A DNA stretch of 64,000 nt from Bilabrum cf. latius (lineage: Eukaryota): NCBI GenBank assembly GCA_965178125.1, contig OZ237768.1:248001-312000 (forward strand), given 5' to 3'. Made by a program: the position numbers and the translations under genes. Shown piece after piece: positions 2,140-62,040 of the stretch. Each line of letters begins with the position of its first letter. Position 1 is the first letter of the stretch. The notes under the pieces were generated by a model. The model ran no database searches and was not told where the DNA came from. It was given only the letters and a program-made list of their open reading frames with translations.

Positions 2140-3765
2140 TCACCCCCTGACGAAGTGGCAAAGGATCCCCGACCTCTCGGCGAGCCGGAACTTGGTCGGC
2201 TCAAGCCTCCCCACAACGGGGTCCTTGCTCCTGTCCCCCAGCACGTGCCTGACCCCCTCTTCCGTCCACAGAGGCAGCAGCGCATTTGTGTCTCCAATCA
2301 CACCCTTGCCCTCGCCCTTCAGCTCCTGCATCTTGGCCCTCAACGCCTCTGAGCTGGAGGCAGGGAGGGCCGTGGAGGGTACGAAGGGCGCATCCTTCGG
2401 GAAAATATTGTACCCTGTGTCACCCGGGGGGATTCCTCTCCCGAAATAGTGCTCGCTCCACCTCCTCTCAGTATCTCTCCCGCAGTTGAGAACAAACACG
2501 TGCGAGCCGGCAGGAGAAGCCGCGAAGGAGGCGGTGGCGATGCTCTGCATCCTGCCGTGATCCGAATCTGCGTACGCTGGCGGGCCTCGCACCATGACTA
2601 TATCGTATCCCGGGTAATCTCCGCCGCTGCCAGCGGAGAAACCACCGTTGCCGGGCTGCTCCAAGTCCTTGGCCCTCTGCAGAATACTCTGGATCTTGAG
2701 CTTCTGGTCGCCCATCCTCCCGTTCAACTTGTCCCTTTTGAGCTGTGTCCAATAGCTCACGGTCACGGGGCGGCACACGGCAGGCGTCTCGGGCGACAGG
2801 GGCGCGTCCGCGGGACTGCAGCCAAACTTCCTGAGGGTGTCTCCCTCGTCACAGGGAGCCTGCGACCTGCACGCCACGTCGATGATGCCACCTCGGTTGG
2901 CGCGAGCGACCACGCCCAGCTCCGCAGTGGCCCCAAAGTACAGAATCCTGAGGGGTTTGCCCTGTCTCTGCGGCGGGGCCTCCAAGCCCAGGGCCTCCAG
3001 CCGAGAGGGGGCGGACAGGGCCCTTGCCAGCTCCTCATCGGAGACGCCTGCCCGCCGCAGCCTGAGGGCCTGTATGGTGCGCAGCAACACCGCGAGCGCA
3101 GAGTAGTCCGCGATGGTCGTCTTGTCTCTATATGCGAGAGTTAGGTCTGCCAGGGCCTGAGTGTCCCAAGGCGACGGGTCCACGGCGCCGGAGACCGAGG
3201 CCGATTCGCTCGTGCTCTCGCTCCGAGGTGGCGTGATAGGATTCTATGGTGCTTGCTACTACTGTTTAGCTTCATATTCCTGTGCTTTGGGGGCCTTACT
3301 CTTCTTCTTCTTAGTCTTAAGCTTCTTTTCGCCGTTGGTCCGCTGCGTTGCCCCAGGTTTCCTACCTATGCCACCTCGCGCGCTTTCACTAGATCGAGCC
3401 ACGATCCGATCTGCAGGCGCCAGATCATGAAAATATTCTACAGGTACACTCGGGCTATCGAGTTCGATCCCCCTGAGCGAAGTTCCAGCGGTCGCAGGGA
3501 CAGGCTTTGGCGCAGACCGAACAGGATCGATATCGCGCGCATCCTGGAGCGTTTCCTGGTTGTGATCGCCACTTTGAAGTCCCCCGTCGGTTCTAGCATC
3601 GTTTTCCTGAGAATGGAACTCAGTCTGCGGTTTCTGCGACATCAGCACGAACTCGAGCGGTCCAATCACAAGGATGACTACAGCACTCGCTATCAACAGG
3701 GTAGTCTGCAGCCAACTTGTTGATCTCTGCTTGCCATACTTCCTATCATCGTCGTCTTTTTTCAT
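2140..3765 (-). CDS. Type II membrane protein with C-terminal DUF579 / IRX15-GXM-like polysaccharide O-methyltransferase-like domain (~541 aa)
   Basis: Track ORFs 3259..4158 and 2140..3183 share a frame and are separated only by TAGs (3259, 3256, 3244). There is an N-terminal TM segment (TTLLIASAVVILVIGPLEFVLM). Motifs LRILYFG, YDIVMVRGPPAY..GRMQSI and HVFVLNCGRDTERRWSEHYF resemble DUF579. Stop is TGA at 2142-2140. The start is uncertain: the frame is open upstream, with an alternative ATG at 4071. Confidence 0.7.
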
Positions 3766-4229
3766 GCCGCTGATGTGATATGGAAGGGCACCATGTTCAG
3801 TGGCGGTTGTAACTATCAATACAAGCACACAAACGGACGCGAAACTCAACCTGTCATGCGGCTTTGAACATGGAGTCCTTATTTGACGCTGTGTAGACGA
3901 TATGTGGGGCGGGATCGGAGGCGTGCACTTTGAGAGGGCGAACCTGCCGGCATGAATTGAGAGCAGCTCGGGTGTCTCACGGCACCGGTAGCCATCGGCT
4001 GGACTAGATCGCAGTGGCAGTGGCATTATAGCAGCCGGTTGATACTCTTTCCCATATATGCTAGTAGGCATTGAACGAGCATCGAGGTATGGTCCTAAAT
4101 TGGTCTTTGAGCCCGCCTCAGGCAAGTGAGGTTGCACAGCAGCTCGCTGATTCCTCACTTAAGCATTTATAGAACCGATCGTAGTGGTTAGGAAAAGAGT
4201 AGTGGATAAATAATGCTTCTGTAGGCTTA

Positions 4230-7200
4230 ATGTCGCTGATTATTGGGGATTCAAGCTAGGGGCGCTAGTGGGCGGCAAGCTTCTGCGCAGCAACTGGGCT
4301 CACCGTCAGCAGCACAAGGGAGCAGCGCGTGACCGCAGCAGGAGTGGGAAGTCTTCCGAAATGGATCGAACAGCTCGCGTTGCAGAGCACCCCTGAAGCG
4401 CTGAGATCTGCTTGCTCACTCGCTCTCTCGTTTGCATCGATCTGCCAGCTCCTGGTGGTGGCAGCTGCTGGAAGTGAAACAGTTCGAGCCGCATTTGCTC
4501 CCGAGGAGAGGCGACCGATGGATGAAACAAGACGGACCGACAGAGAAGAGAGCATGCGCGTGGAGCTGTTCTCCGTGCCTATCAGCCGACGCAAGGCCCC
4601 GTCTCTATCGGACTCAGGGGCACAGCCACCGCCGGCACCGGTACCGGCAGCAGCAGGTGCAAGTGGAAGTGCAAGTGCGGGGACTTGCCGCGATTTGCTA
4701 CACCGCAGGGCCGCCGATGCGTGCCGCTGCCTCGCAGCTCGGAAGGCGAGGACCTTGGTTGGCCTGCAGGCAGACCGCGTGGCTGCACTCGTGGCCAATG
4801 CAGACGAGCTGGGCAGGGACTCCAGCGAGGTACAGGCTAGGGCAAGGGCGGCCTTGGGCGCCACAGCCTTTGGTATCGGAGGCAGTGTTCTAAATGATGC
4901 CGACAGCAATGGTGCGCGAGTTCGTGCCGACGGCTCCGCTGTCTGCGGCGAAGGCAATCAGGAGCATGGCTGCGCGGCTGCGTGGTGGGAGTGCGTGCTG
5001 GCAGGCGCCGCTTGCCACGGATAGCTCTATGCAGATGAACTAGTGGACGAAGATGAAGGTCAATGTGACGGTGAATATGAAGGCCAATTTGAGCGCTCGT
5101 GTACTACTGGCGCAAGCAAGCTGGGCCAGGCCTCCATGGCAGACAACCCTTCAACGGTGGAGGCTGGCTCTGGCTCTCTTGACGACTCAATACGCGGGGA
5201 TGGGATTGCCAACAGTCTGTCCGTTCGCGCCAATGTCTGCCAGGCTGCCACCATTATTTGCTTGGACGTTCTGGCGAATGCGCTGGTGAGTTCAGCCCGC
5301 CGAGGGTAGCCCCCGTCGTCTGGTCAGGAGAGGCAGTCGCAGCACGATGGCTCGATGCTAGCAGCGGAGCAAAAAATGGCCGGCGGCTTGTCGTCCTCTT
5401 CGTCGTCCTCCAGCTCAATCGATGAAATTGAGGCTCGTGCGGTTGCACTAAGGCGGCTGAAGCTGAAGCAGCAGCGTAGGAAGCTGGCAGGGCTGATTGG
5501 CGCATCTAGTGGGTAGGATGGATCGGTCAGATCGTCCCCAGCACCTGCAGCATCAGCAGTGGCTGCAGGTGCACCTCGATCTACTTCAGGGGGCGAGGCA
5601 GGCGCCCTCGTCCAAGAAAAGTCGGAAAGCTTGGCGAACCATGCCCCCCCTTCTCTCTCTGACCAAGGGGAGGGTCGAGCTGATTCCAGCATAGCCTCAC
5701 CGATTGGGACGCTCCAAGCCGCAGCACCTGGTGCGGCCAAAGTATAGCAGTAGAAATGCACAAGCCCGATCACCGACTCAGATCCGCGCACTTCCGTGCA
5801 GTATGGCCTAGATTCAATGGAGACCTCTTTGCAGGAATCAATAGCCGAGACTCAGAGTGCCGCCATCCGTGGCATGCTCGGATGTACTGAAGCACGGACC
5901 GTCGTGGCAAAGCCCATCTCTCTGCTGGCATGGTTGGCGGTTCATCTAGCGGGGGCTCATCAACCAAACACGGAAGACGGTGATTCCTCGCATGCACAGG
6001 CAAGCGCTGATCTGGCTAGTATCGCAGATTCCTCAGGGCTTGGGCTTGGGCTTGGGCTGGGCCCCGCAGTCAGCCCAGAGTGCGTTCGTCAAGCGGAGAG
6101 CAGACTTTCCGGCGCTGGTCAATCACCACGCCGATCAACGAGGCGGGCAATGGGTCACTTGTCTATGGCTCAGACTCGTCTCGAGAGACTCGGTCAATGT
6201 GTTGCGTCATCCTTCCTTTTGCTGGCTTCTTGCTGTGATGGCCACGGTCAGCACAATGGCCATGATCCAGGCGCTGGCATGTCAGCTCCAAGTGCCGCCG
6301 TCGACCACAGGGGGCTTGATGATCACTCTCGCGCCCATCTCTCCAAGGATCGTTCGAGCATCCTCACTTAGATCTCTAGATTTGCCTCGTTTTCGCGCGC
6401 CTACTCTGACTGGATGCGGCATACCAGAGAGTGCGGGGTGCTGGCAAAGCAGCGCACCAAGACGGTGGTCAGAGCCGAGCTTCACGCGAGAGAGATAGCT
6501 GAGAAAGCCAGGCAAAAAGCCATGAAACAGGCTGTGGACCAGGCAGAGTTTGACCTCAAGCACGGCAGTGGCAAGGGGGTCGTGTCTACCTCCGAACAAG
6601 GCAGCGGCACCACTGTCGCGCCGTGGCGAGACCTCAGAGATCAGGCTGCGTCCGTTGGATAGAAGAAGCAGGAGTTCTCAGCGCAAGTTGCGACAGAAGT
6701 GGCGCTGGAACTGGCAGTCGCAGAGGTTTTTCGATTCTCTTCTGCGTGCCTGCTGAAGGCCTGCCTGCGGTGGTCCAAGGGTGCGGTGCAGGCAGAGCCG
6801 CGGCCTCGCGGGGGTCTCTCAAGCAGCGGCGTGCACGCCGGGAAACGAGGTACAAGCACCATCGAAATGATATAGGGGGCATCGGGCGAAGATATTCTTG
6901 GAGATGCATTGAATTGCGCTGCTATGGCTCCTGCAGCGGAGTTTGTCCCCCCTGCAATGAGCCTGGTGCGCCTCGCGACAACAGCAATCGCCGCAAGTCG
7001 AAGGGACCTGCACGCCGCATGTGCCCGCTGCTTGGGGCTGCTAGCGAGACAGGTGCATGGCACTGCAGTTGCTCGACTCACCGAGGGATGGTACGACCGC
7101 GGTTTCCCTGGACTGGAGCTATCCAAGGCATCGTCTGCTGGGGAGGAAGAGTCCCTCGCACCGTCCAACCACTCAGCGATGGAGGCAGGGTGCACGCGAC

Positions 7201-9770
7201 CGCTAGCCGAATCGGTCCCAACAGCCTCGGTGCACGTGCTCAGGCGACCCAGACCCTGTGTAGATGTCGCGATTCATTGCATAGGAGTGATGGGTTCTCC
7301 TTTTCGCGAGGACGCGGCAGCCGCAGTCGTCAATAGGGTGTTGCTTGCCTGCACCGGCTCCGCTTTCATGGGCCACGATGGCCGCATAACCCGGTTGTTC
7401 TAGATTGCAACAGGCGAGCATGCAGTTGCAACCGGCAGTGCGAAGGACAGCAGATCTGGCGCCAGCACGGCAAGCGTGCTGTCCTTCGCAGCCGACGGTG
7501 ATGCCCACATCTAGAGCCCAGGGCATTCCCTAGAAGCCTTGTCTGCTCTCATTTGTGGTCTCATCAGAACGTCTGGGTCGAGCGTATGCCATGCACCCGA
7601 AGTGCATTCAGAGAGCCAGGGCTCTAAGAAGAACGCATCAGGGGATTAGGAACTAGACACGGTCAGTCTCGCCATGGGACTGCAGTGCGGCCTAGACGCA
7701 TCGATGGCAGACTCCATCGGTGGACTGGCAACTGGCCTGTGGCGACTCCCGCCCGCTGGGTCATCAACCGCGGTGCTTAGCCCGCCTCGTGCCGTGGCCC
7801 TGTCCCCGCCTCGTAGCGGAGCAGCAGTTCTCATGGGATCAGCGAATGGGCGGTCCCAGTCCCACCAGAGCCAGAGGGACCCACGGGGCCGCGATGTGTC
7901 GGTTCGAAGCGCGTTGGTGCTGGCTTCGCTGTCATGCGCGGTATTGGAAGCCACTGTGGTAGTCGTCTCTCCCGGGTGTGTTGGGCTGCGATCCGATCCA
8001 GAGGGGCTGGAAGCAGGCTCACGTGCAGGCGGGGCCTCCGTTCAACCGCCCATGAAGCGAAGGAGACTTGGCGCCCCGTCAAATGCCGAGCTAGACCAAC
8101 AAGCGGGAAGAGCTGGCCGCGGCCGCGGTCGGGGCAGAGGTAGGGGTAGGGGAAGGGGCAGAGGCCGTGGCAAGGGCCAAGTGCGCTCTAGCGCCTCAAC
8201 TCCCACGCCATCAGCATTGAACGGCTCTACTCGCGTGGTATCTGCCGAATCCATCTCTGAGCTGGCCACGCCCACCCAGCTGCTCCAGCTTGGTCTCGGG
8301 CCGATCACGGTGTATCAGCTGCTGGACCTGGGTTCATAGGCTTGCCAGATGATGAAGAATGTTCTAGAATAGACGGCTGGCAGAAGCCGCGGCTCACCGA
8401 GTACCGTGGACCAGGAACCAGCTGCAGCTGCAAGCCGCCGTGCCCCTACCACAGCTGGTCTGGATGGAAGCGCGATCCGTATTTGTTCTCACCTCGTGAG
8501 GTGGGCGCTGTGGCAGGCGCAATCGTGGCTGCAGCCCATGGAGTCGTCTCTGGCCGTGCCGTGGCGCCGCGGCCTGGACGAAGGTTCTCTGAGAACCCTT
8601 CGCAGGCGTGCCGCTCGTTGCAAAGAATCGGCAAAGCAGCTGCACCAGGCGCTGTGCGAATACACCGGTGTTCGGGCGAGGATGTCGCTGCCGGAGGTAT
8701 GCATGCTTCAGAGAGTGCTGCGTCTCCTCGAAACTGACGTGGGCAAGTGGCTGCAGGCATCGCCAGAAGTCGACATGTATGGCGCGATGGTAGGCGCTGG
8801 CAGTGGAGGGCGCCATGGTAGCTTCAACTCTGACTCCCGGAATGAACGGCTGGGCGATGCCGGCTCCCGGGTAGTTGGCCGGCAGCTGGCGATGGCACGA
8901 GTGGCGCAGGCCATGGTAGATGAAGGATCAGAATCGATACCATCGCAGTCGGGAGGCGACGATGACACTGACCAAGCGGATGAGGATGATGAGGATGGTC
9001 ACGAGGATGAATGCTATCGTGGCGGGGGTGGGAGCGAGGACGATGGATCCATGTCTGAATCTGGGTCAGACTCAGGCTCAGATGGTATGGCCGCTGGATC
9101 TGTGAGAAATGAGGCTGGTATCGGCTCTGCCCTGAATGAACGCGGCATAGTGATGCATAACGGCAGCGATTCGTAGATCCGGATGACCGGTGCAAAAGGA
9201 GCTGGTGACTCTGGATCGCAGCATCACGGCCTGCTTGCCGCTTCGCTTGGCGGGCACAATCCAGGACCCACCCTATTTGGCAGCGAGCATGGCCACAGCC
9301 AGAGTGCATCCCCCGGTGCCCCCACCATGGGGGTGCCGGGGCTAGGCATGCAGCCTCAGCCTCAGCCTCAGCCTTAGCCTCAGCACCAGCACCAGCACAG
9401 CTGGTAGGGAGCCGGGTATGCCGGGCTGATGCATGGGCTCGTCCCCATGCCATCGATTCCCGCTGCGTCACCCGCGCCGGATAGTGCTGGAGGGATGCGC
9501 CTCGGGCAGGCTGTGATGGTGGCACAGCACGTGCACAGTCACGTGCACAGCCACTATCATGCAGGGAGCAGCTCCAGCTCGATAGGACCTGACTACCCGC
9601 GCCACGTTGGGGATGCAGCCCCCGGGAGCTTTGGCCGAGAGAGCATTGCGATGGGTGCTGGAGCAACTGGCAGTGCTGCGGGTGCCGCCCAGCAAGTTGT
9701 CGATATGGACGGGTTGCTGGCAGCTGCAGAGGCCCAGGGGTTGTTGTCTAGTGACAGTGATAGCGACTGA
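4230..9770 (+). CDS. Large (1846 aa) intronless low-complexity protein with RG dipeptide tract, acidic tract and QP/QH repeats; function unknown
   Basis: Track ORFs starting at 4329, 5043, 5559, 5796, 6414, 6909, 7674, 8406, 9183 and 9429 are all in one frame. Every intervening stop is TAG. ATG at 4230, TGA at 9768-9770. Confidence 0.8.
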
Positions 9771-9880
9771 GCAATCCATTTAGAAGGCTGCAATCACTAT
9801 CCTTCACTTTGTCTTGGATCTGCAAGTGCAGCGCACTGTCCTGATGTCATGTTCAGTCGCAATCACTTGGCTCCCAAATA

Positions 9881-10828
9881 ATGAATCGATTTGCATCCAA
9901 TCTGCTGAGAAAATCCGTGCGATACTTTTCTGCGGCTCCGCGGGCCGGGCCAGCACACGCTCTGGCAAATAGTTGCATCCTCGTCACTGGAGCTGGGAGC
10001 GGGATCGGCCGGGCAATTGTTGATCTAGCTTACAACTCTGGAGCACGCGTTGTTGCAACAGATCGCGACAAAGGATTACTCACTAAACTTAGCCGAGATT
10101 TAGAACCATCGACACCGGGAGAAAGTCAGCTGACCACAATATCGGGAGATGTTGCGAGTTCGCAGGATCGCTAGGCGATGATTGACGAAGCCTTGCAATT
10201 CGGGAATAGGCTGGATGGGCTGGTCAATTGTGCCGGAGTAGACTTTGGAAAGCCTTTCTTAGATACTAGCATGGAGGACTTCGACCGGGTAATCGACGTC
10301 GATCTAAGGGCAGTATTCGCCCTCACTCAGCTTGCAGCCAAAGTCATGGTAAAGTAGAGACCTAGGGAGCACCCAATTAATGACTCCCTGGTCATAAAGC
10401 AGCTCCCTTCCATCAAAGGTTCTATCGTGAACATATCATCTGTGCACTCGGTCGCTACCCTCCCAGGCGTGGCGCCCTACGCCGCTGCCAAAGCCGGTGT
10501 CGTCGGTATGACGAGGTCTATTGCGAACGAGCTGGCTCCCCTGGGCGTGCGGGTCAACACAGTGTCGCCCGGCCTCGTAGCGACAAAGATATGGGACGAC
10601 GTGCGCGCCGCGGCTCCCTCCAGGCTGGCAGCCCAGGAGCACTGGGCTCGGAACATACCACAAGGTGCGCCCAACACACCCCTCGAGATCGCGCAGGCGG
10701 TTTGCTTCCTCCTGTCACCCATGGCCTCTGCGTTTCAGGGAGCGAACATTGTTGTGGATGGTGGCATGACGTCTTAGCTCGTATCGCAGCCGCCTTACAA
10801 GCCGAAGCCACACGGCGCTGGGTCGTGA
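9881..10828 (+). CDS. Classical short-chain dehydrogenase/reductase (FabG-like), probable mitochondrial presequence (315 aa)
   Basis: Motifs TGAGSGIG, LVNCAG, SIVNISS, YAAAK, RVNTVSPG and VVDGG lie in one frame interrupted only by TAG at 10172, 10355 and 10775. Stop is TGA at 10826-10828. The N-terminus is Arg-rich (MNRFASNLLRKSVRYFS). Confidence 0.93.
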
Positions 10829-11007
10829 TCCCGCGGTGCTTACCGGACTTGCTGGATGTACAGCATAAGGGGATGCTTGTTGGGGTGCGATGAAACCTGG
10901 ATGAAATTGAAGACGGTATCCATGATACGCTAGAAATACTCATCAACATGCCAATATATGTTTCCAGCCCAACGTTGTCTGAATGCAGCTGTGCATCCGC
11001 AGAGTGC

Positions 11008-14000
11008 TCAGCAAACCGTTCAACAGGACCCCTCGCCTTCTTTGCGTCCCTCTGCTTCTAAATGTACACAGCCGCCATCAGTTGCAGCCGCAGCAGCCTC
11101 ATTACCATCGTCGCAATCGTTCGTTTCTGCTGCCGCCTCTCTGCCCTAGGCAGAACCTGCGCCATTTGAGGCGCACCTGCTCACCGCAGGACCTGACCTG
11201 CTCCTGAATATATCAGGAGCAGCATACGCTCTCGCGTAGGAAGTACGCGCGGAGAAATGACGCGCCGACGAGCGCCTTCGAGGCGCAAGGTTTCCAGACG
11301 TGCTCGAGGGTCTCTCCCCCTTCCTCTAGTAGATCTAGTCGTTATCTATGCCACCCTCATCACCGAACTGTGCCATCAATCCAGCACGCCGTCTCTGGTC
11401 CCTGCTGCGGCTTGCACTATGCTTATGGCTCCCGCTGTCGGACCTACCCCGCTCCCGCGCTGCCGCTGACCGCCACCCCAAAGGAACCGACATGTTATGC
11501 TTGACCCCTGCCCGTAGACGCCTTTCCATACGCTTGTCCGGCCATGCCTGCACGGCCCGGCGGGGGCCGATCCCCACAGCGGGCCCACCTACCGTCCCGG
11601 CAAACACTCCGCTGCCCCTCTGCCGACCATCACCCCCAGCATCGCGCTTGTGCCGGGGCATGAAACCGGATACCCTCCTCGGTATTGTGCTCCCAGCTCC
11701 GCCCGTGGCCGCCATCTCTGCCCTTGCCTATGAGTCGAACAGCCTCCCACTACTGTGCTTGCCACCAGCCGACAAATTGGGGGCGCTGGGGGCGGTGGGG
11801 GCGGTGGCGCTCTGCCTCGCTAGCTCCCGCCTGTGCCTCTTGCTGGCAAATGAGGGATTGCGCCACCCTACGCCGCCGAGTGCTCGAGCCCTGTCCTGCT
11901 GCTTTGCAATCGCCGCGGCAGTAACGCGCGCCACAGCAGGCTGCACCTGCGACCGGTGGTGTCTGTGAGACAGGTGCAACCTATGGAAACTCCCGGATGG
12001 ATCAGCGGGTCGAGTCTCAACCTCTATCTATCGGTGGCTGCGAGGCTCCAGGGAACACGCTCCTGGGTGCACGATGCAAGACTCCACCAATCCCACTGCA
12101 TTAACAATGCCTCGGCGACCGCCACTGGTTCTCAAACGGCCACGCGCCCTGAAAACAGAGCCAGCTTGCAACTGCACCCGAAGTAGGGCAAGCGACACCC
12201 TGAGCTCTGTGAGCACGACAGTGCGCTGCAGTCGGAGATCGTGACCGACTGGCTCGATCACAGGATGCACTCCTGCGGCCTGCGTACCCAAAGCTTCTTT
12301 ACCCCGAAACAGGCGCGTGTGCCAGGGCACAGTGTCGCTGGACTGGTCCTGCAAGGCAGCTGAAATCGTCCCAAGCGGTGCCACGAGCAGCCCATCCCCC
12401 GGCAGCAGCTTGTACGTGCTATAGCATGCACCAACTACATCTCCTAGCACTGCGTCCGCTCCTGCTCCAGACACAGGCGCTTGGCTAGCCTCAGGTACAA
12501 CCCTACTGTTGAGCCGCACTTTCCTCTCGTCCTTCGCAAAAATCATCCCGGGAATCGAGCGCCATGCTGGCCCGCCCAGAGCAGTATCTGCCATGGACAA
12601 TGAGCTTGAATGATCGTGCAGATCATCGTCACGCCGCATTCTGGTGCCTCTGTCTCGCGTCTCCAAGAGGAGGTCGGTTTCCCAGGCAGCCGCTTGTGTC
12701 GCCCACCGCCAGGTGCATGCGCCCACAGAGGCCGCCAATGCTGCATGCTCTGCCTCCTTCGTGCGAGCATCGCTGACACTGCTTGGTAGCTCAATTCTTC
12801 TAGCCTGATTGCCTGGTGCTGATTGCTCGCACAAGGCTTTTCTAGTTGCCCATTCTGCCGCGTGCAGCCTGGGCCCACACATGCTACTTGCGCTTCCGCC
12901 AGATAATGGGTCGCTGCTATCGGACGATACAGACGACATCGCGCCTGTCCAGGACCGCGTTGGCATCGCGCATACCCAGTGGGTGCATCCAATTGCGTGC
13001 CTGTTCCAGGCAGCGCGCGATCCAGCCCAGCCACACTCAGGTGCAGGGCATTGCCGTGGCGCCAGAAGACAGACCTAGTCATGGTCTCCCTGGAGCTCTG
13101 CAAAGATTGCTCCTTGGGACGTTTGGTCTGCATGCTTCCCTCCGAGCTCTCCATCTATCTTCAGTGACAGCCAGGCACCACAGCCGTGCCTGCATGCTGT
13201 GCCTGTACTTGCTTCAGGGGGTTTGACACCACTGGCTCTGTCGGGCAAGCCTGTACTCGTGCCACTCTCCTTCACTGCCGGCGAACAAACTCCTGCATGA
13301 GTGCCCATCACGTCGCTAGCTGACGTTTGTACACCCGTAGGCATGTCCTCAGGTGGCCTAAATCTGCCTATGATCCCAACAGATCGCAGTGATTGTTCCA
13401 GCGACTGCCCGGCTTCGTGGCTGCCACCAGACATCGCGGCACTCGTCACACCCCTGAGGTCAACCGCACGCAGCTGCCCTGCGCTGCCACCAAGAAGCAC
13501 ATCCACGACGCCCCGCAGTACCGCAATAGACCCGAATGGCGCCGCTAGGACTCTGAGTCGAGGACACGACTCGAGAAGCTCCCCAGCCCACTCGGATCCG
13601 CAGGACCTCCACCCTGCACTGGAGAGCGAGGGGCTCTTTCGGGCATGTCTGCGCATCGATCTATTGCTTCCTTCGTCCATTAAGGGGCCCGTGGATAGCC
13701 ATGGCACCGACAATCCGACCAGCTGCTTGCACGCTGCCAGAGCAACCGACAGGGACACCTGATCTGCTCTGCAGCAGGACCTCGGTAAGGCCAGCGTCTG
13801 CAGGCCAGCGCCAACGCTACAAACACAGGTATCAGAATGATGAAGACCGCAAGTGGTCTAAATTTGGGCTGAGCTTTGAGCCACAGAAGCGCTGTGACGG
13901 CTTTCCACTCCAGCTATGTCACCGCCATGTGACGGCGTGGTCTGCACCTGCAGCTGCAGCAGAGTGGCAAGTCCGTCTGTCCCCAGTGAACCCTCCGACA

Positions 14001-15561
14001 GCCGACTCAGGTCAAGGTGCCGCGGAGCAGGATCATTGCATGGTGCACCTCCCCTCCTCTGCTCATGGCACAATGACGCTCTGCACCGCAGGAATGCGCC
14101 AGCCCAGTGCCTTATGCTCTCGGTGCTCCACACATCCCTGGCTCTCACTCTCGGGGGCAGCCAGCCGTGAGCTAGCGCAGCTGCCCTGTCACGAGCAGCT
14201 CTATCATCGGTATCGAGCGAGAAGGATTCCTACCTCTGTTGCGCCCTCGCTCTGGCTCCTCCAATACCCTGCGCCTGCAGCAACAGCCCATCCCTCCTCG
14301 CTGCTCTTCTGGCTCGCCAGGCTCGCCTGGCAGACTGGTTTCTCGCCCTCGCTGCCTCAAGCGGGTCTTGCTTGTCGTCAATCACCAGCGACTGCAGCTG
14401 ACTGCAGCTGCCCATCACGTCGCACATGACGGCCCAGGCCGGCTGAAGCAGTGCCCGCCGTGGTCGCAAATCGCAGCGCACGAGTCCTAGCGCACGGAGC
14501 TTCCGCAGGATGCGACGAAGGGCCGCCCCCCTCACAGAGCACAGCTGGGTGTCGTGCAATCGCAGGGCTTCCAGTCGAGGCAGTCCGGACAGGGCAACTG
14601 CGCCTGATGGTCCTAGTTGTGACAGCGACAGGTACTTGAGAGACTGGAATGACCTGACGTGCCACGCCCTCAGCAGCACGCTGTCTCCGGCTTCGAGGCA
14701 GCGCAGGCTGGCTGCGAAGCGGGGGCACGCGATCGCGCGCTTTGCTGGGAGCAATCCTGATTCCTTGTCGCCGGCACCCCTCGCTGCGTTACTGGCTCTG
14801 TGTCCCCGAGGCGCACTGGATCTTCTCTCGTCCTCATCATCCATGTCGTGCGCTGGGTCAGATGCAGGTCCACCTGCAGCTCCTCTGCTCCAGCACGCTG
14901 AAAACTTGAGGCGAATCAGCCTGTCACTATAGGCGCGCAGTTTCCTGCACATATGGTCGCACGCTTGGGGAGTCAACTTGAAGCTGCTGCCCGTACTAGA
15001 AGGGGTTGGAGTAGGGCGAGCAACGCTGTGCATGGGCGCCTTCGGGCTTGATACCACCCTACCACTAGCCAACGGTCCAATGTCCGGCTTTGAAATTGTG
15101 CCATCCGTTTCACCGGTCCCAATTCCGTCCAACTGCGCCGCAAGTCGCTCCGCCTCTCGCTCTTCAGCCGTGGAGTGCGCGCTCATATCCTGCCCGACCT
15201 CCCAGCCGACAGCAACTCTCCATCGAACCTCCGACACACCAGCGTCGCCACCTGTTAGTGGCAAACCTGTACGCTTGCTACATCCGCTGATATCCAGTAC
15301 TTCAACTCTTGCGCCAGTGTGGGTGAGAGCCTCAAGGTTCTGCTAGTCGATGACATCACTTGCCATTCCGGCGAAACACGCTACCTGACAAACGGTTGAG
15401 CTGGGAGAATAATCTTCTGTTTGATGGTATGCATTGATAGAATGCGCATATAGTGAGAGTTTGCGGCCCAATACTAGGCGAAGACTTCGAGACGTGCCTG
15501 CCAACCTCTCGAGCGACAAACGATCAAGCCAGTCCTCAACGAACCTTACAGCCCGCAGCAT
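11008..15561 (-). CDS. F-box/LRR-like protein with degenerate RNI-type leucine-rich repeats (~1517 aa)
   Basis: Track ORFs 15343, 14230, 13858, 13075, 12028, 11728 and 11335 share one frame joined by TAGs; stop is TGA at 11010-11008. LRR-like segments include SLKYLSLSQL, LPRLEALRL, CSQLQSLVI, RHLDLSRL, CPRLRVL and LRAVDLRG. The N-terminus (WLDRLSLERLAGTSRSLR) is F-box-like. The start is uncertain. Confidence 0.65.
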
Positions 15562-15805
15562 GGTCTTCAATTTGATTGCAACCACATCTCTCAGCGCTTT
15601 TGGCCGGAGTCCTATTGGGGACGTGTAGACTACAAAATTGGCTGTCGAATATTCTGGGCGTGGATGATGAGCATGGTGTGCAACTGCAGCTCATCATCTC
15701 CGGGGCCATTTTGACGCAACAACTGGACCGAGACAAGACAATTCTTCAGGTATTATTTTTCCTGGAACTCATACGGGCATCTTGACCTCTGCGATACCAC
15801 TTGCA

Positions 15806-17808
15806 ATGCTGAGTTTCGTAACGAGACTGGCAGCTGCCGGGTGGCTCGTGGGATAGGCTCTCTCGAAACCAGCCCATCCCCACCTGGTCGTGTTCGTAGC
15901 AGACGACTTGGGCTATAATGATCTTGGATTCACAAACGGCGGCAAGACGCACACGCCATACATCAACGAGCTCGTGAAGGAGTCTACGCTTCTCTCCAAC
16001 TACTACCAGTGGCGGCTTTGCTCGCCCAGCAGGGCGTCCCTTCTGTCGGGACGGTACCCGTAAGAATATTTGAAGATATAGAATGTGTCGGTTTGTGCTA
16101 CCTTGGAAGTTTCGATGTTCCTGAACGAATCGTCACCGGATCCACCCCACGGCAACTGCGTACGCAGATGGGGTGTTGGATTTTATGACATGTCTGACGA
16201 TGGAGCGCATTGTATCAACGAAAGTAAGAGGTATGCCTGTGTCCTTTTGTCGACCGAGGCACACGGCACTTGCGGAGAGTTGAATCCTTCTGTATTCTCA
16301 AATACGCGCAGCCACTCGCTTGATGCCCGATGTACTGAAAGATTTCGGCTACAAGACGCACGCCCTTGGGAAGTACGACGTTGGTAGGGTCCTTAAGAGC
16401 TGCACGGCCACCGAGCGCGGCTTTGACACCTTCCTGGGCTACTACACTGCCTGCACGAGCGACTACTGGTACCACGGGGCTCCCGGCGGCAACCGCACCG
16501 CTGACAATTGCGGCGGCGTGGACTAAACCGAGGCGAGCGTGCAGGACGGCATCCGAGGGGCGCCCATGAGCGGGCCCGACTCGCTAAACGGTACGTACGA
16601 TCAAGAAGTTTTCACCCGTCGGGCCATGGACATCGTGAGTGAGCACGACGCAGACGAGCCCATGTTCCTCTATATCGGGCACCATGTGGTGCATGACACC
16701 TGCCAGCACAGCAGGACAGAGGGAGCAAAAGTGCTGCAGGCCCCTTGCGGGGACGTGGATGCCTATGCCACCACTGAGCTGGACGGTTGGAAGGTGCAGG
16801 CAGCCATGACCACGCAGCTAGACTACGGCGTGGGCAATCTGACAGAGGCGCTCAAAGCCAAGGGCATGTGGGATGACACGGTGTTCCTGTTCGTGTGAGT
16901 GACTGGGACTAATTGATTGTTTTCGGGCTCGCGATGGGGCTTACTGGCCGTCGTCATGCCGAGCCAGCACTGCATACTCTATCCATTGCATTTTTGCTGA
17001 CACCCTCCACCGACCGATGGATCGCAGGTCAGACAACGGGGGCCCGTTGGACCACTCCAGCAACTGGCCACTGGCCGACGGCAAGGCAAGCTGGTTCGAG
17101 GGCGGCCTTAGGGTCACAGCGTTCATCCACAGCCCGCTGCTGGGGCCCGGCATGCAGGGCGTCACCTGGGACGGGATGGCCCACGCCAGCGACTGGTACA
17201 CCACGTTCGTAGAAGGGGTCATCGGGGCGCAGCTGCCCAACAACACGGGTCCCCGCGCGCCGGACGGGCACAACCTGTGGGATGCCCTGAGGAACAACGG
17301 ATCTTCCCCTCGACAGGAGATCATCCACGGCGTCAACGGGTCGTGGGTGGTGCCCCCTATCTCCCATGAGGACTGCCCTGGGTGCAACGAATTCGCGGCC
17401 AGGTTCGGTGACTGGAAGGTCATCTTCGGGGTGAGGGAGGGCAAGGGCCCGCAGGCGTGGCCCGAGCCGGGGCAGTCCGCAGTGCCGTTTGGGAAGACCG
17501 GTGGCGAGGTGGAGGAGGGCACGGACCACTGCAGGGCCCCGCTGCTGAAGACCACCGCGAAGGAGACCAAGTCCCCCGACGGTGTGTGGCTGTTCAACCT
17601 GGGAACCGACCCCGGTGAGACACAGAACCTGGCGGGAGACCCCAAGTACGCCAGCATGATCGAGCAGTTCAGGCAGAAGATCAAGGAGGCCAGTGCCACG
17701 GGTCCCCGGGCGGCGTTCCTGAAGCCTCCCAACGCCACTGAGGTCATTTGCGACAACGAGAAGAAGTACGGCTACCTAGAACCGTTCGACTGGAAGCCGT
17801 AGCCTTGA
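15806..17808 (+). CDS. Secreted/lysosomal formylglycine-dependent sulfatase (family S1, arylsulfatase B-like), 4 exons
   Basis: Exons 15806-16059, 16168-16223, 16312-16894 and 17028-17808, with GT-AG introns that restore frame. Motifs: VADDLGYND, CSPSRASLLSGRYP (CxPxR), GKYDVG, RGFDTFLGY, VSDNGG, GKASWFEGGLRV, LFNLGTDPGE. TAG at 15854 and 17800 is read through; stop is TGA at 17806-17808. One in-frame TAA at 16524-16526. Confidence 0.9.
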
Positions 17809-19301: not shown

Positions 19302-20434
19302 TGTCAGCAGTACTGCGCCTGAACAGCCGGAAATTATCGGCGAGCAGCTCTAGCAACAATGCCCAGAAGCGTGCACCTCACCGCATCGCACTCGTCACAC
19401 GAAGCTCCTAGCGACAGGAGAGCCATGCATCCGGGGGCATCCCCGCTCCAGGCAGCGTGCCACATGGCGCTTCTCCCATGCTGCGGGAATAGAACGAGAC
19501 ACGTGAACGCATAATTTAGGCCTTATAAGCGTCATTATCAACTAGATGGCGGCAATACGGATAGATTAGCACCCGACTGAGCCTATTTTCAGCGGTTTCA
19601 CCCATGCCAAGCAAGTGCTCACTTCGTCCGTCTGATTCACCAGCTCCAGGTGGGCCGACGTCTTCGCCTCTTCAGCGCTTTTGGAGCCAATGTCGTCACT
19701 ATTGGGGGCTGATGTGCCGCGCAGAGACTGCGCCACTGCCGCCTAAACGAGCAGCGCGATCTGCCTGAGGTCCCTGGCCCGGATGGCGGCTCGCAGCGGG
19801 GTGTCGCCGTCCTTCGAGATTTAATCGTGATTATATCGGACAAAAACGCATAGGGTGGATATTTTGGTACGTTTATTCATCATCACGGCTTGGAATAACG
19901 TTTAACGTTTAATGCATGTCTCTGTTCTTGGTGGATGGCCAGCTCCACCCAAGCATGTCTCTGTTCTTGGTGGATGGCCAGCTCCACCCAAGCATGTCTC
20001 TGTTCTTGGTGGATGGCCAGCTCCACCCAAGGCGCTTACCCGCCGCCCAGCAGGGTGGGCGACAACCTCAGGGATCGTTCTAGTTCAGCGGATAGGTCGT
20101 ACGTATAATCCTTGCTCACCTTGCATCGCAACCCGGGGGGTACACCTGCCTGCAGCAGCTTGGCCAGCGTTTCGTCGTCACCAGACGCAGCTGCCCGGAA
20201 CAGCCTCGTTGCCTCTGGGGTGCATGCGAGGTGGGCTTGCAATTCCCGGCTATTACTTGTGATGTGTGGGGCAAAGTAATCGTGGTGGGAAAGTGAGTAG
20301 AGTAGCTGCCTGTTGATCGGTGGGAGGGTTGGCGCCAATCGGTTGATAGCCGTTGGATGTGCATCCGTTCTCCTTGTCTTGATTGGGGCGCGAATTCGGG
20401 CGGGGTGGGCATTTATTTTCACAAAATTACTCAT
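18050..20434 (-). CDS. Ankyrin-repeat protein with long low-complexity C-terminus (~562 aa), 4 exons
   Basis: Exons 20434-20120, 19811-19623, 19480-19382 and 19135-18050, joined by phase-0 GTGAG...AG introns. The product contains ankyrin-like units LFRAAASGDDETLAKLLQAG, DGDTPLRAAI, HGRSAMWHAAWSGD..CMALLSLGA and EGISPGMAAILAGH. In-frame TAG at 19745-19743; stop is TGA at 18052-18050. The start codon is tentative. Confidence 0.8.
19257..19300. repeat. (GGCT)11 microsatellite in intron 3 of the ankyrin gene
   Basis: Read directly from the sequence. Confidence 0.97.
19914..20030. repeat. Three identical tandem copies of a 39-bp unit (minisatellite) in intron 1 of the ankyrin gene
   Basis: Unit GCATGTCTCTGTTCTTGGTGGATGGCCAGCTCCACCCAA x3 with no spacers. 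Each unit has an internal inverted repeat GGTGGA-N8-TCCACC. Confidence 0.95.
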
Positions 20435-59537: not shown

Positions 59538-61865
59538 TCACTTTCTCTTCGGCTTGTGCGATTTTCGCCCCGCCTTCGACTTGGACGAGCTCTTGCCGCT
59601 GCCCAGCTTGAGCATTGCCTGCCAGTTGCCACTCCCGAGCGCCACGGCAGCTTTTCGATGCCCCTGCTTCCGTGACTTCTTTCCTTTTTTGCTCTTCATA
59701 TCCTAACTGGACCCGTCAGAAGCTCCGGCGCTTCCTTGATCCGACTCTCGCCTGCTCCGTTTCCCGCCCGGCGCACCCTCGGCGGGACCAGGGGCACCCC
59801 GCTTGCCCCCAATCGTGCCGCCTGCAGACTCCTCTTTCTGTGAATCCTCCCTTTCCTTTGCTCGCTCTAGGGCAGCCCAATGCCTCTCGAGCGCCTTCCG
59901 CTCTTTCTTCTGCTTGATCGTCTCGTGCCGGGGAGCGAAGGCCCGCTCGATGGCTGCCTGCAGCGTGCCGCCGGGAGCACCCGCCACACTACCCGCGGCA
60001 CCTGTGCCACCCAGATTCCATTTATCCCGGGCGAGTGCGTTCTGCAGGAAGAACACGGAGGTATCACACGTCGACACCCTGTACCTCTGCCTCCTCCACT
60101 GTTGCGACCCCTCAGTGTACCCGTGCTGGGACTGCTTGAGCACGATGCTCTGCCTGAGGAACTTGGAGGCTTGGAGCGCCCCCCACCCGGGAGAATCGTC
60201 CCACCGCGGGATGATGATGCAGAAGCCCAGGGGCACCCTTGCCCCCCGGAGGCACCCCTCCATCTTCTCGGACATGGCCCGCATCACGCCCTCCACGAAC
60301 GGCGGGTTGGCCTCCAGCGACAGCCCCCTTCCCGGGGGCAGCCGCTCCAAATCCAGGTCAAAGAAACTGCCAAGGGAACCGAACCACACGTCCGTGTCGG
60401 GAAAGGCAGAGCAGAACGGCGCCCACCTGCAGTTGAGTGGGCTGGCGAAGCATTCAACGCACGCCCCTGCCCTGCTCCTGAGCACGTCAAACACTTCGCC
60501 GTGCGCCGCTGCTTGAAAGCCACCACCGCCGCCGGAGAGCGCCTCGTATCGTGCGAGCATAGCAAACAGTCTGGGCAGGAACAGCTCTGGCTGCGATGCG
60601 CCTGGACCTCTTGAGTACAGCACCCTGAGTTTCTGGTAGTGGGTCGGGTTGAGCCTCAGCTTGAGCACCGACTTGCCGGCCTTGCCACGCGAGACAAGCA
60701 GCTACGGCGGGCGGAGAGCTCGCTCTTTCTTGCCATCTTCGCCCTTACCTTCACCCTTGCCCTTGCCCTTGGTCCCGCCTAGTTCCCCTGCCGCAGAGCT
60801 GCTTCGAGACCTACCCCCCGCGCTGCCATCCTTCGTTGTTCCCTGCGCCTTTACCGCCGCATCCCATTGCTTCCACACAGCCGGGGGCACCTCTGGACCT
60901 GCGAGGCCATCCGAGCCAGCGAAAGAGTGGCTGGAGAGTGTGGTGCCTCCTGCTTTGGGGGAGCACCGGAGCACTTGCTCGGGCTCGTGCTCGCTCTCTT
61001 CAATCATCACACGGATACCGGCTTTGCTGGCGGCACGCGAAAGTACCGAGCCGTCGACGTGTGCAGCTGGGCCACCTGTTCGCCCAGCGCGTGCAGATGC
61101 GGATGATGAGGCAGAAGAAGAAGAAGAGGAGGTGATGGAGAGGCTGCTCCCCGCCGGCATGCTTGCGTTGGCCGCCGCGATCTCCCACGCATTCGCTTCT
61201 TCTGCTACTGATGGTGACGTTCCGGGCGAGGACGAAGCAGGCGCGGGAAACGGACGCTTGATTAACCCCACAGAGGAAGCATCGGCAGCCAGTGAGACGC
61301 CGTAGTCAGCAGCGCTCGCACACGTGGCTGCGGGGGCACCGGCCGACCTGCGAGATTCGCTGTACCACGCTCGAAGCGATGGACCGGCAGACCCTGGCGC
61401 GACTACTTCGGTGGGCAGTGCTGGCGGTGTGCGCCCGACGGAGCGAGCGGCTTGCTGCGTAGCTCGTGCGAGTGCCTGGGCCGCTGCTTCGGCCTTTTCA
61501 GCCGGCATACCTGCCTTCTTTGCGGCTTCCACTAATTTATCAAACGACGATATTCTCAGCGGAATCAGCGGATCTATCGGCTCCACAGCCTTTGCGACGC
61601 TCTCGATGCCGTCGGCTAGCTCGCTCTACTTGAGCAGCTACTCGAACTGCCACTGTTCAAACGCTGCAACTGGGACATCAAATCCCTTGCATAGACCATC
61701 GAAAAACTTGTGCCTCAGTGAGCGAAGTGCTAGGCACCTCCTGGACTCGACTGCAGGATCCACAACCAACGGCAACTGCTTGCCGACTGGATTTGTAGGC
61801 AAGACAGGCGCAATATCAAGGACATGTTTGGGGCCAGCGGCTTGTTCGTCCCAAATTGGTTCCAT
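59538..61865 (-). CDS. PCIF1: mRNA cap-adjacent (m6Am) adenine-N6 methyltransferase PCIF1/CAPAM (~775 aa)
   Basis: Motifs LARYEAL..GFQAA, ECFASPLNC, FCSAFPDTD.WFGSLGSFF and catalytic EANPPF; upstream helical-domain-like AFEQWQFE and DPLIP. Track ORFs 61638, 60702 and 59703 share a frame joined by TAGs. A Lys-rich tail ends at TGA 59540-59538. Confidence 0.9.
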
Positions 61866-62040
61866 TTGATCAGCTCCGCAAACAAATCTATGGAAATGAA
61901 ATGGTTTGAGGCAAAAAAGGCCCGTCATGGAGAACTCGGTTTCACGAACGTTCCATGCGATCTGCCGAGTGTACCACTCAGTGTCCACGTGCGGCTTTGG
62001 CAGCGCGCGAGGTGCTGTCTCCGTAACGAGCATGCATTAT

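Follow-up and report, generated by a model that had tools for sequence, protein, structure and literature searches.

To our knowledge, UAA and UAG are almost always reassigned together, and very few nuclear genomes treat the two differently. Codes of the table 15 type, in which UAG encodes glutamine while UAA and UGA terminate translation, have been described in Iotanema spirale, Hartmannula sinica, Trochilia petrani and Protocruzia tuzeti (PMC5304391; PMC11687900), and crAss-like phages use the same codon table (PMC9523058). We describe a code of this kind in a eukaryotic genome of 48.6 Mb on 111 contigs (G000), beginning with a glutamine-proline repeat that contains an in-frame TAG and lies in the window, the whole stretch of 64,000 nucleotides that was analysed (G000:C34:248001-312000). 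To judge from conserved protein columns and gene ends, UAG almost certainly encodes glutamine in this genome, with UAA and UGA retained as stops.

The code shares the main testable features of the table 15 type, with UAG widespread in coding frames and at conserved glutamine columns and with UAA and UGA as stops, and it has in common with the eukaryotes that use it both the codon table and a UAG that serves as a minor glutamine codon in most genes. TAG accounts for 596 of 4,538 glutamine codons (~13%) and is present in 70 of 75 selected long open reading frames (ORFs; 464 kb on three contigs), compared with 18.5–31.8% and 78–84% of genes in two ciliates (H. sinica, T. petrani). The published cases are fornicates and ciliates, whereas the present organism appears to be a stramenopile, and from this difference in supergroup we infer an independent origin. 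Among the stops of this genome UGA dominates (TGA closes 69 of the 75 ORFs and TAA closes 6), whereas UAA predominates in the published cases. Finally, we found a candidate gene for a transfer RNA (tRNA) with the anticodon CUA, whereas no such tRNA turned up in H. sinica or T. petrani, and as of 2017 I. spirale had no known example.

The amino acid was read from conserved columns of dyneins. When dynein-2 was aligned to 120 homologs and columns at least 70% conserved were considered, glutamine occupied 8 of 16 columns with TAG, compared with 9 of 18 with CAG and 9 of 20 with CAA; seven of the TAG columns were 97–100% glutamine. A broader test covered 19 dyneins, using 150 representatives, a further 20 sequences taken from the 120 dynein-2 homologs, and columns with at least 20 homologs, in which 177 of 273 TAG codons could be scored. 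The log-likelihood was +148.9 for glutamine, −85.7 for glutamate, −235.3 for leucine and −345.8 for tyrosine, leads of 234.6, 384 and 495, respectively. TAG fell on glutamine in 19 of 26 columns conserved at 70% (glutamate in six, valine in one) and in 11 of 11 conserved at 90%, and as a control the same test decoded 61 of 61 sense codons correctly. TAG at non-glutamine columns of conserved proteins, which an earlier note on this DNA had named as an outcome that would speak against its reading, did not appear in the dynein tests. Beyond the dyneins, residue 44 of the release factor eRF1 (glutamine in 115 of 117 homologs) is encoded by TAG. The TAG share among glutamine codons tracks the CAA share (rho 0.72) and drops as GC content at third codon positions rises (GC3; rho −0.87; 20 dynein pieces); TAG behaves as a non-preferred glutamine synonym.

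In the window, the repeat and its reading frame comprise the following features.

3870 to 9770, plus strand: host ORF of 1,966 amino acids with 26 TAG codons and a TGA end, no Pfam family (ORF list, Pfam, codon model).
9351 to 9398, plus strand: (Gln-Pro)5(Gln-His)3 tract whose fifth glutamine is TAG (sequence, Tandem Repeats Finder).
9375 to 9377, plus strand: in-frame TAG read as glutamine (frame from this locus, residue from conserved dynein columns).
9405 to 9407, plus strand: another in-frame TAG directly behind the tract (sequence and frame).

Read directly, positions 9351–9374 are four copies of CAG CCT, 9375–9380 are TAG CCT, and 9381–9398 are three copies of CAG CAC, exactly as the earlier note had described; Tandem Repeats Finder gives a period of 6 with 5.7 copies. 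The repeat sits near the 3′ end of the host ORF and in its frame, which lacks internal TAA and TGA, an outcome with a chance probability of ~1e-16 at the composition of the window. With this ORF left out of its training set, a codon model scored the ORF's frame at +121 and the other five at −29 to −178; for positions 9180–9600 alone the lead was slight, −0.2 versus −1.7 to −15.6. A standard-code frame of 307 codons on the minus strand (8824–9747) was rejected, scoring −41 versus +31 for the plus frame.

The earlier note had held that the repeat identifies the amino acid without any homology search, and this was overstated. What stands is that CAG gave rise to this TAG, which the low-complexity tail tolerates; the repeat does not identify the residue, and its frame needs other evidence. 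Taken alone, the repeat TAG is not above chance and is no proof, as a C>T change within a CAGCCT microsatellite is to be expected irrespective of the meaning of TAG, and the same change read in the +1 frame is a silent change of a leucine codon. That UAG means glutamine, the note's central assertion, is instead borne out by the conserved dynein columns; under such a code, the repeat would display one visible synonymous change from CAG to TAG. Its suggested check on the codons next to TAG gave modest support: glutamine was the most enriched neighbor (76 versus 49.8 expected, z 3.9), but leucine came close at ±1 (z 3.6), while at ±2 glutamine alone stood out (z 3.9). None of the six TAG codons inside homopolymeric runs in the 75 long ORFs lay in a glutamine run, and counts of homopolymers and dipeptide repeats in these ORFs yielded no further glutamine-run examples.

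The use of TAG as a sense codon extends well beyond the repeat. In-frame TAG occurs in 19 of 19 dynein loci and in Prp8, and in the long-ORF set TAG is not enriched where genes start. Long frames in the window stay open only if TAG is read as sense, and reading through it joins fragments into a frame of 11,595 codons (22147–56934, minus strand) that contains 127 TAG but neither TAA nor TGA.

A nuclear gene for a tRNA with anticodon CUA, hereafter tRNA(CUA), lies on the minus strand at G000:C23:907607-907679 (69.8 bits, Rfam), followed by a T run and flanked by ordinary GC-rich genes. Our first anticodon pattern gave 11 matches and no tRNA, missing this gene because base 38 is C. Three pattern searches of the genome returned no second CUA tRNA: of the 21 matches to the D-arm pattern, 14 were no tRNA and the rest were Gln, Glu and CUA genes already known, and the intron-type pattern had seven matches and no CUA tRNA. 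Rfam scored 63 of 780 candidates, so further tRNAs may exist. A metagenome scan recovered eight loci, five with a tRNA(CUA). One of these, L168, comes from a diverged species and carries a syntenic ortholog identical at 71 of 73 positions, in which pair 6:67 shows a compensatory change. Over the main alignment, the neighboring protein is 29% identical; it contains five in-frame TAG, of which one faces CAG in a conserved block and the others face Asp, Gly, Gly and Leu in poorly aligned parts. Together, the ortholog, the compensatory pair and the in-frame TAG codons argue that tRNA(CUA) is under selection and that the code is shared by both species.

Glutamine elements in Escherichia coli include G2-C71, G10, a pyrimidine at 34, U35, A37 and G73 (PMC1483225). 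All of these are present in tRNA(CUA), which also has G10:C25 and lacks U1-A72, G3-C70, G36 and U38, as well as A73, a base critical for tyrosyl-tRNA synthetase (PMC9976931). Since the proteins exclude tyrosine, we infer that tRNA(CUA) is charged with glutamine and very probably decodes UAG in this form. Ordinary glutaminyl-tRNA synthetase (GlnRS) would charge it via U35, G73, A37, G10:C25 and a D stem of the tRNA-Gln(UUG) type, and as the A of UAA does not pair with C34, only UAG would be captured. A partial parallel exists in E. coli amber suppressors built on non-glutamine tRNAs, in which a CUA anticodon with U35 draws GlnRS (PMC9976931, PMC1483225); those cases, however, involve a bacterial enzyme and laboratory constructs, and tyrosine-based suppressors in yeast took glutamine faintly.

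Two origins of tRNA(CUA) have to be weighed. The D arm of tRNA(CUA) is that of canonical eukaryotic tRNA-Gln, whose anticodon stem is similar too, and there is an even chance that tRNA(CUA) branched off from tRNA-Gln long ago (or derives from tRNA-Trp or a phage) and that its Tyr-like acceptor arose by convergence or recombination, with UAG still meaning glutamine. The D stem matches Gln(UUG) in 4 of 4 pairs and Tyr in 1 of 4, G73 is as in Gln(UUG), and the overall identity to tRNA-Tyr (50/73; one tRNA-Tyr gene was found for comparison) is hardly above that to Gln(UUG) (48/73). The anticodon arm recurs in a phage tRNA(CUA) (4/5 pairs), a match that was selected by motif. The acceptor stem points the other way, sharing 6 of 7 pairs with Tyr versus 1 with Gln(UUG), 3 with Gln(CUG) and 2 with Trp, and C1:G72 occurs in Tyr only among 24 stems compared. 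The U8-A9 and G15:C48 combinations and a variable loop of five bases are likewise Tyr-like rather than Gln-like. As background, a 6/7 acceptor match was found in 2 of 263 pairs of different isotype, both Met/Pro look-alikes, and the acceptor and anticodon stems together match Tyr in 10 of 12 pairs, compared with a maximum of 8 of 12 among 410 pairs (one Glu row mis-parsed). These stems were picked after the likeness had been noticed, from a set that lacks His, Leu, Asp and several isoacceptors. Because of the missing isotypes and post hoc stems, the Gln-type D arm, the phage likeness and the resemblance to canonical tRNA-Gln, derivation from a duplicated tRNA-Tyr(GUA) with switched identity can be proposed only tentatively, as about an even bet or slightly less.

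Two simpler parents were rejected. A suppressor of this kind had been predicted to be a mutated copy of tRNA-Gln(CUG) (PMC5304391), but tRNA(CUA) is identical to that tRNA at 44 of 73 positions and in 3 of 7 acceptor pairs, and its nearest relative is tRNA-Tyr. For tRNA-Trp, found at one of 15 distinct loci examined out of 35 pattern matches, the two shared acceptor pairs led to the same result. Should a tRNA-Tyr origin hold, there is precedent for tRNA identity switching in recoding (PMC3113583), in which a reassigned codon is likewise read by a tRNA body from another isotype; that alloacceptor case is mitochondrial, sense-to-sense and biochemically demonstrated, whereas the present one would be nuclear and stop-to-sense and is read from sequence.

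Several side observations concern tRNAs. Three phage-like metagenome contigs (L167, L172 and L173) carry a tRNA(CUA), L167 and L172 sharing one gene with U1:A72 and G73; a viral scan found no tRNA(CUA) beyond two phage-like ones already found. Six tRNA genes have a CAT anticodon (G000:C5:282086, C7:1154419, C3:1096994, C3:1133102, C9:698618 and C25:323122; loci L036, L046, L050 and L058–L060). Their acceptor stems equal that of tRNA-Pro(UGG) in five to six of seven pairs, and one lies 250 bases from the Pro gene; they may represent a second switch of identity or else a repeat derived from a tRNA. The two tRNA-Ile genes observed in the nuclear genome (L022, L055) have the anticodon GAT; in eukaryotes this anticodon is mostly AAT. 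The tRNA-Trp(CCA) at L197 (G000:C40) has an A-C mismatch at anticodon-stem pair 31:39.

Seven of seven dyneins that end within their locus do so at TGA (six) or TAA (one), at most two residues from the last aligned column, and the eRF1 gene ends at TAA, so that all eight gene ends checked, a small sample, are TGA or TAA. In-frame TAA and TGA are absent from frames of 11,595 and 1,985 codons. We consider it improbable that UAG has a dual meaning, encoding glutamine internally and serving as the stop of some genes. The long ORFs were defined by TAA and TGA and reveal TAG ends indirectly only; in 69 of them, with six TGA ends that possibly run into introns omitted, TAG made up 7 of 690 of the last 10 codons versus a frequency of 0.0062 in gene bodies (P 0.14), and it stood immediately ahead of TGA in 2 of 69 (P 0.07). 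This slight surplus would suit a dual meaning, but it is neither a depletion nor a significant excess, the eight checked ends use the other two codons, and in several ORFs protein-like, GC-rich sequence persists past a late TAG. Other code tables were rejected on the same codons. The ciliate code (table 6) shares UAG as glutamine, but UAA, which is also glutamine there, is missing from long frames here and ends genes; codes without a dedicated stop (Blastocrithidia, Condylostoma) are set aside by the absence of TAA and TGA from coding frames.

The eRF1 gene (G000:C35, locus L001) was compared with 109–117 aligned homologs; of the 120 listed, 117 were used, and three top matches of odd length were left out. 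The changes A27T, R28K, G29A, N30D, I35V, S60V and K130H each recur in zero to three homologs, and position 69, leucine in 116 of 117, is here a TAG, so that the change would be L69Q; human numbering is presumably that of yeast plus 3. The eRF1 of Bicosoecida sp. CB-2014 has the usual residues at the changed positions. In yeast, L69A raises readthrough at all stops, slightly more at UAG (PMC4381064). Position 69 is altered here as in the rhizarian exLh (L69A), whereas T32 is kept here and replaced in Iotanema (T32G; PMC5304391). The sequence changes may be linked to the loss of UAG as a stop, eRF1 having presumably lost most UAG recognition through changes at or near residue 69 and in the GTS and TASNIKS loops. 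Within the gene, TAG is used for two of the first three glutamine codons (44 and 69, both in the domain that reads codons) and for none of the remaining 13; it is a speculation that these two codons provide feedback on eRF1 level if some UAG recognition remains.

A number of observations weigh against parts of this account. The eRF1 exon borders, including three GT-AG introns, were predicted from DNA. GTS, NIKS, S70 and YxCxxxF are all kept in the protein, N30A had no effect in yeast (PMC4381064), and rapid evolution in this lineage might account for some changes. GlnRS (G000:C33) has ordinary motifs in comparison with the human and bacterial enzymes and nothing distinctive. The tRNA(CUA) retains C1:G72, the eukaryotic Tyr pair and a determinant of that identity (PMC9976931), and its pairs 1 and 2 differ from those of the genome's own glutamine tRNAs. 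The giant protein encoded by the 11,595-codon frame is too variable and gives a weak signal in 61 of 120 listed homologs, with glutamine leading in 4 of 26 columns and leucine likewise in 4; the pooled top residue is glutamine, and the two most conserved TAG columns are glutamine (48/59 and 45/60). Pfam scores do not separate glutamine from glutamate, at 193.1 versus 193.0 for a dehydrogenase of the window and 285.7 versus 285.9 for Prp8.

One may postulate from such points that UAG encodes glutamate, leucine or tyrosine and that the repeat is merely tolerant, and we regard this as very improbable. The tRNA body resembles tRNA-Tyr, glutamate fills 6 of 26 conserved TAG columns (CAA gives 5 of 35), the leucine at eRF1 position 69 would by itself favor UAG as leucine, and codes with UAG as leucine exist (PMC11687900). 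The log-likelihood leads of glutamine over all three residues and the unanimous columns at 90% conservation, however, refute this reading computationally. The leucine code of the table 16 type (exLh, TARA ciliates) was rejected in addition on the tRNA(CUA), whose short variable loop is not a long arm.

Nor is it credible, except at a very small probability, that TAG is an assembly artefact (a C>T miscall) or is edited to CAG in the RNA: TAG is one transition from CAG, but contigs of run X1 (possibly the assembly source) are identical over 3700–15800, repeat included; those of run X5, from another study, show no difference and cover 24 of 26, 3 of 3 and 9 of 9 TAG codons of three ORFs, the repeat itself lying outside them; the control for CAG triplets across codon borders (CTA followed by G) aligns to leucine in 40 of 43 cases and proline in one, with no C>T signal; and a dedicated tRNA(CUA) gene is conserved in a second species.

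We regard as highly probable a joint explanation in which glutamine has a third codon in UAG, termination is left to UAA and, most often, UGA, tRNA(CUA) is charged with glutamine, and eRF1 has presumably become largely blind to UAG. A fuller scenario is more doubtful, and we put it forward as a possibility somewhat short of even: that this is the first nuclear stop reassignment in stramenopiles, present in at least two diverged species, and that it came about by a route not described before, in which a tRNA-Tyr duplicate became an amber tRNA accepting glutamine (G34C, A73G, G37A and a Gln-type D stem) together with loss of eRF1 recognition.

The source is, with little doubt, a stramenopile and quite probably a bicosoecid. 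A quick dynein-2 tree (24 of 120 homologs), itself weak, grouped the query with Cafeteria in a set of five rows (SH-aLRT 98); the branch of the query is very long, and the join may be false. The mitochondrion (G000:C111; 38,401 bp, GC 24%) has 139 TGA versus 19 TGG codons in long ORFs and a tRNA(UCA); Cafileria and Cafeteria have the same mitochondrial use of TGA as sense (code 4) with tRNA(UCA) (PMC6723347), a supporting trait that is not exclusive to them. An 18S array of 1,700 nt is present on contig C12. As side observations, all 23 long mitochondrial ORFs end at TAA, with genes almost all on one strand, and contig G000:C95 (17.9 kb; L090, L164, L165) bears a second rDNA unit, 78% identical in its 18S to the C12 array and preceded by GGGGTTT and other low-complexity repeats. 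We take this 18S to be dinoflagellate-like, and the contig is probably a contaminant. The DYH1B of Symbiodinium sp. KB8 as deposited (P0527) clusters at 90% with Cafeteria dynein-2, which suggests Cafeteria contamination of that assembly.

In open-licence papers and preprints, with most subscription journals and database annotations outside the scope, we found no report of this code in stramenopiles or bicosoecids; the same papers and preprints gave no report of a Tyr-derived suppressor. Term look-ups in PMC10120064, PMC11008856, PMC11412368, PMC12152300, PMC13768787 and PMC6879139 returned no such report, and the available text of PMC11687900 leaves stramenopiles unmentioned and states that no suppressor tRNA was found in the two ciliates with the glutamine code. 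As far as this literature reaches, the codon table is known; new are the lineage, the predominance of UGA among the stops and a candidate tRNA other than a plain copy of tRNA-Gln.

The window contains further genes that use TAG.

9881 to 10828, plus strand: short-chain dehydrogenase of 315 amino acids, three TAG (two within the domain), TGA end (ORF list, Pfam).
11020 to 15561, minus strand: ORF of 1,513 amino acids, nine TAG, no Pfam family (ORF list, Pfam).
22147 to 56934, minus strand: the 11,595-codon frame, encoding an IPT/TIG and cysteine-rich membrane protein (ORF list, Pfam, homologs).
59538 to 62033, minus strand: PCIF1-like protein of 831 amino acids, four TAG, TGA end (ORF list, Pfam).

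Counted from the first ATG, the giant frame encodes 11,134 amino acids, and its best named homolog among the matches listed is from Cafeteria roenbergensis. It is apparently intronless at ~11,100–11,600 codons and combines IPT/TIG repeats, a cysteine-rich region and several membrane segments; stramenopile homologs matched the last third only, in a search that did not extend to longer forms. Elsewhere in the window, 16903–17808 (plus strand) looks by eye like the C-terminal region of a sulfatase and carries a TAG two codons ahead of its TGA, and 19914–20031 holds a 39-base unit in three exact copies.

These results indicate an independent case of UAG-only reassignment in a GC-rich genome with UGA as its main stop. 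Annotation under the standard code would break most long genes of this genome. One contiguous genome holds the candidate tRNA(CUA), GlnRS, tRNA-Tyr and eRF1, which earlier cases did not offer, and the origin of a UAG-only tRNA, its acceptance by GlnRS and the eRF1 residues involved in losing UAG become directly testable. A flagellate with UAG as glutamine, from the group in which Cafeteria is reported to host giant viruses, would also be a new candidate type of host for viruses that use the same code.

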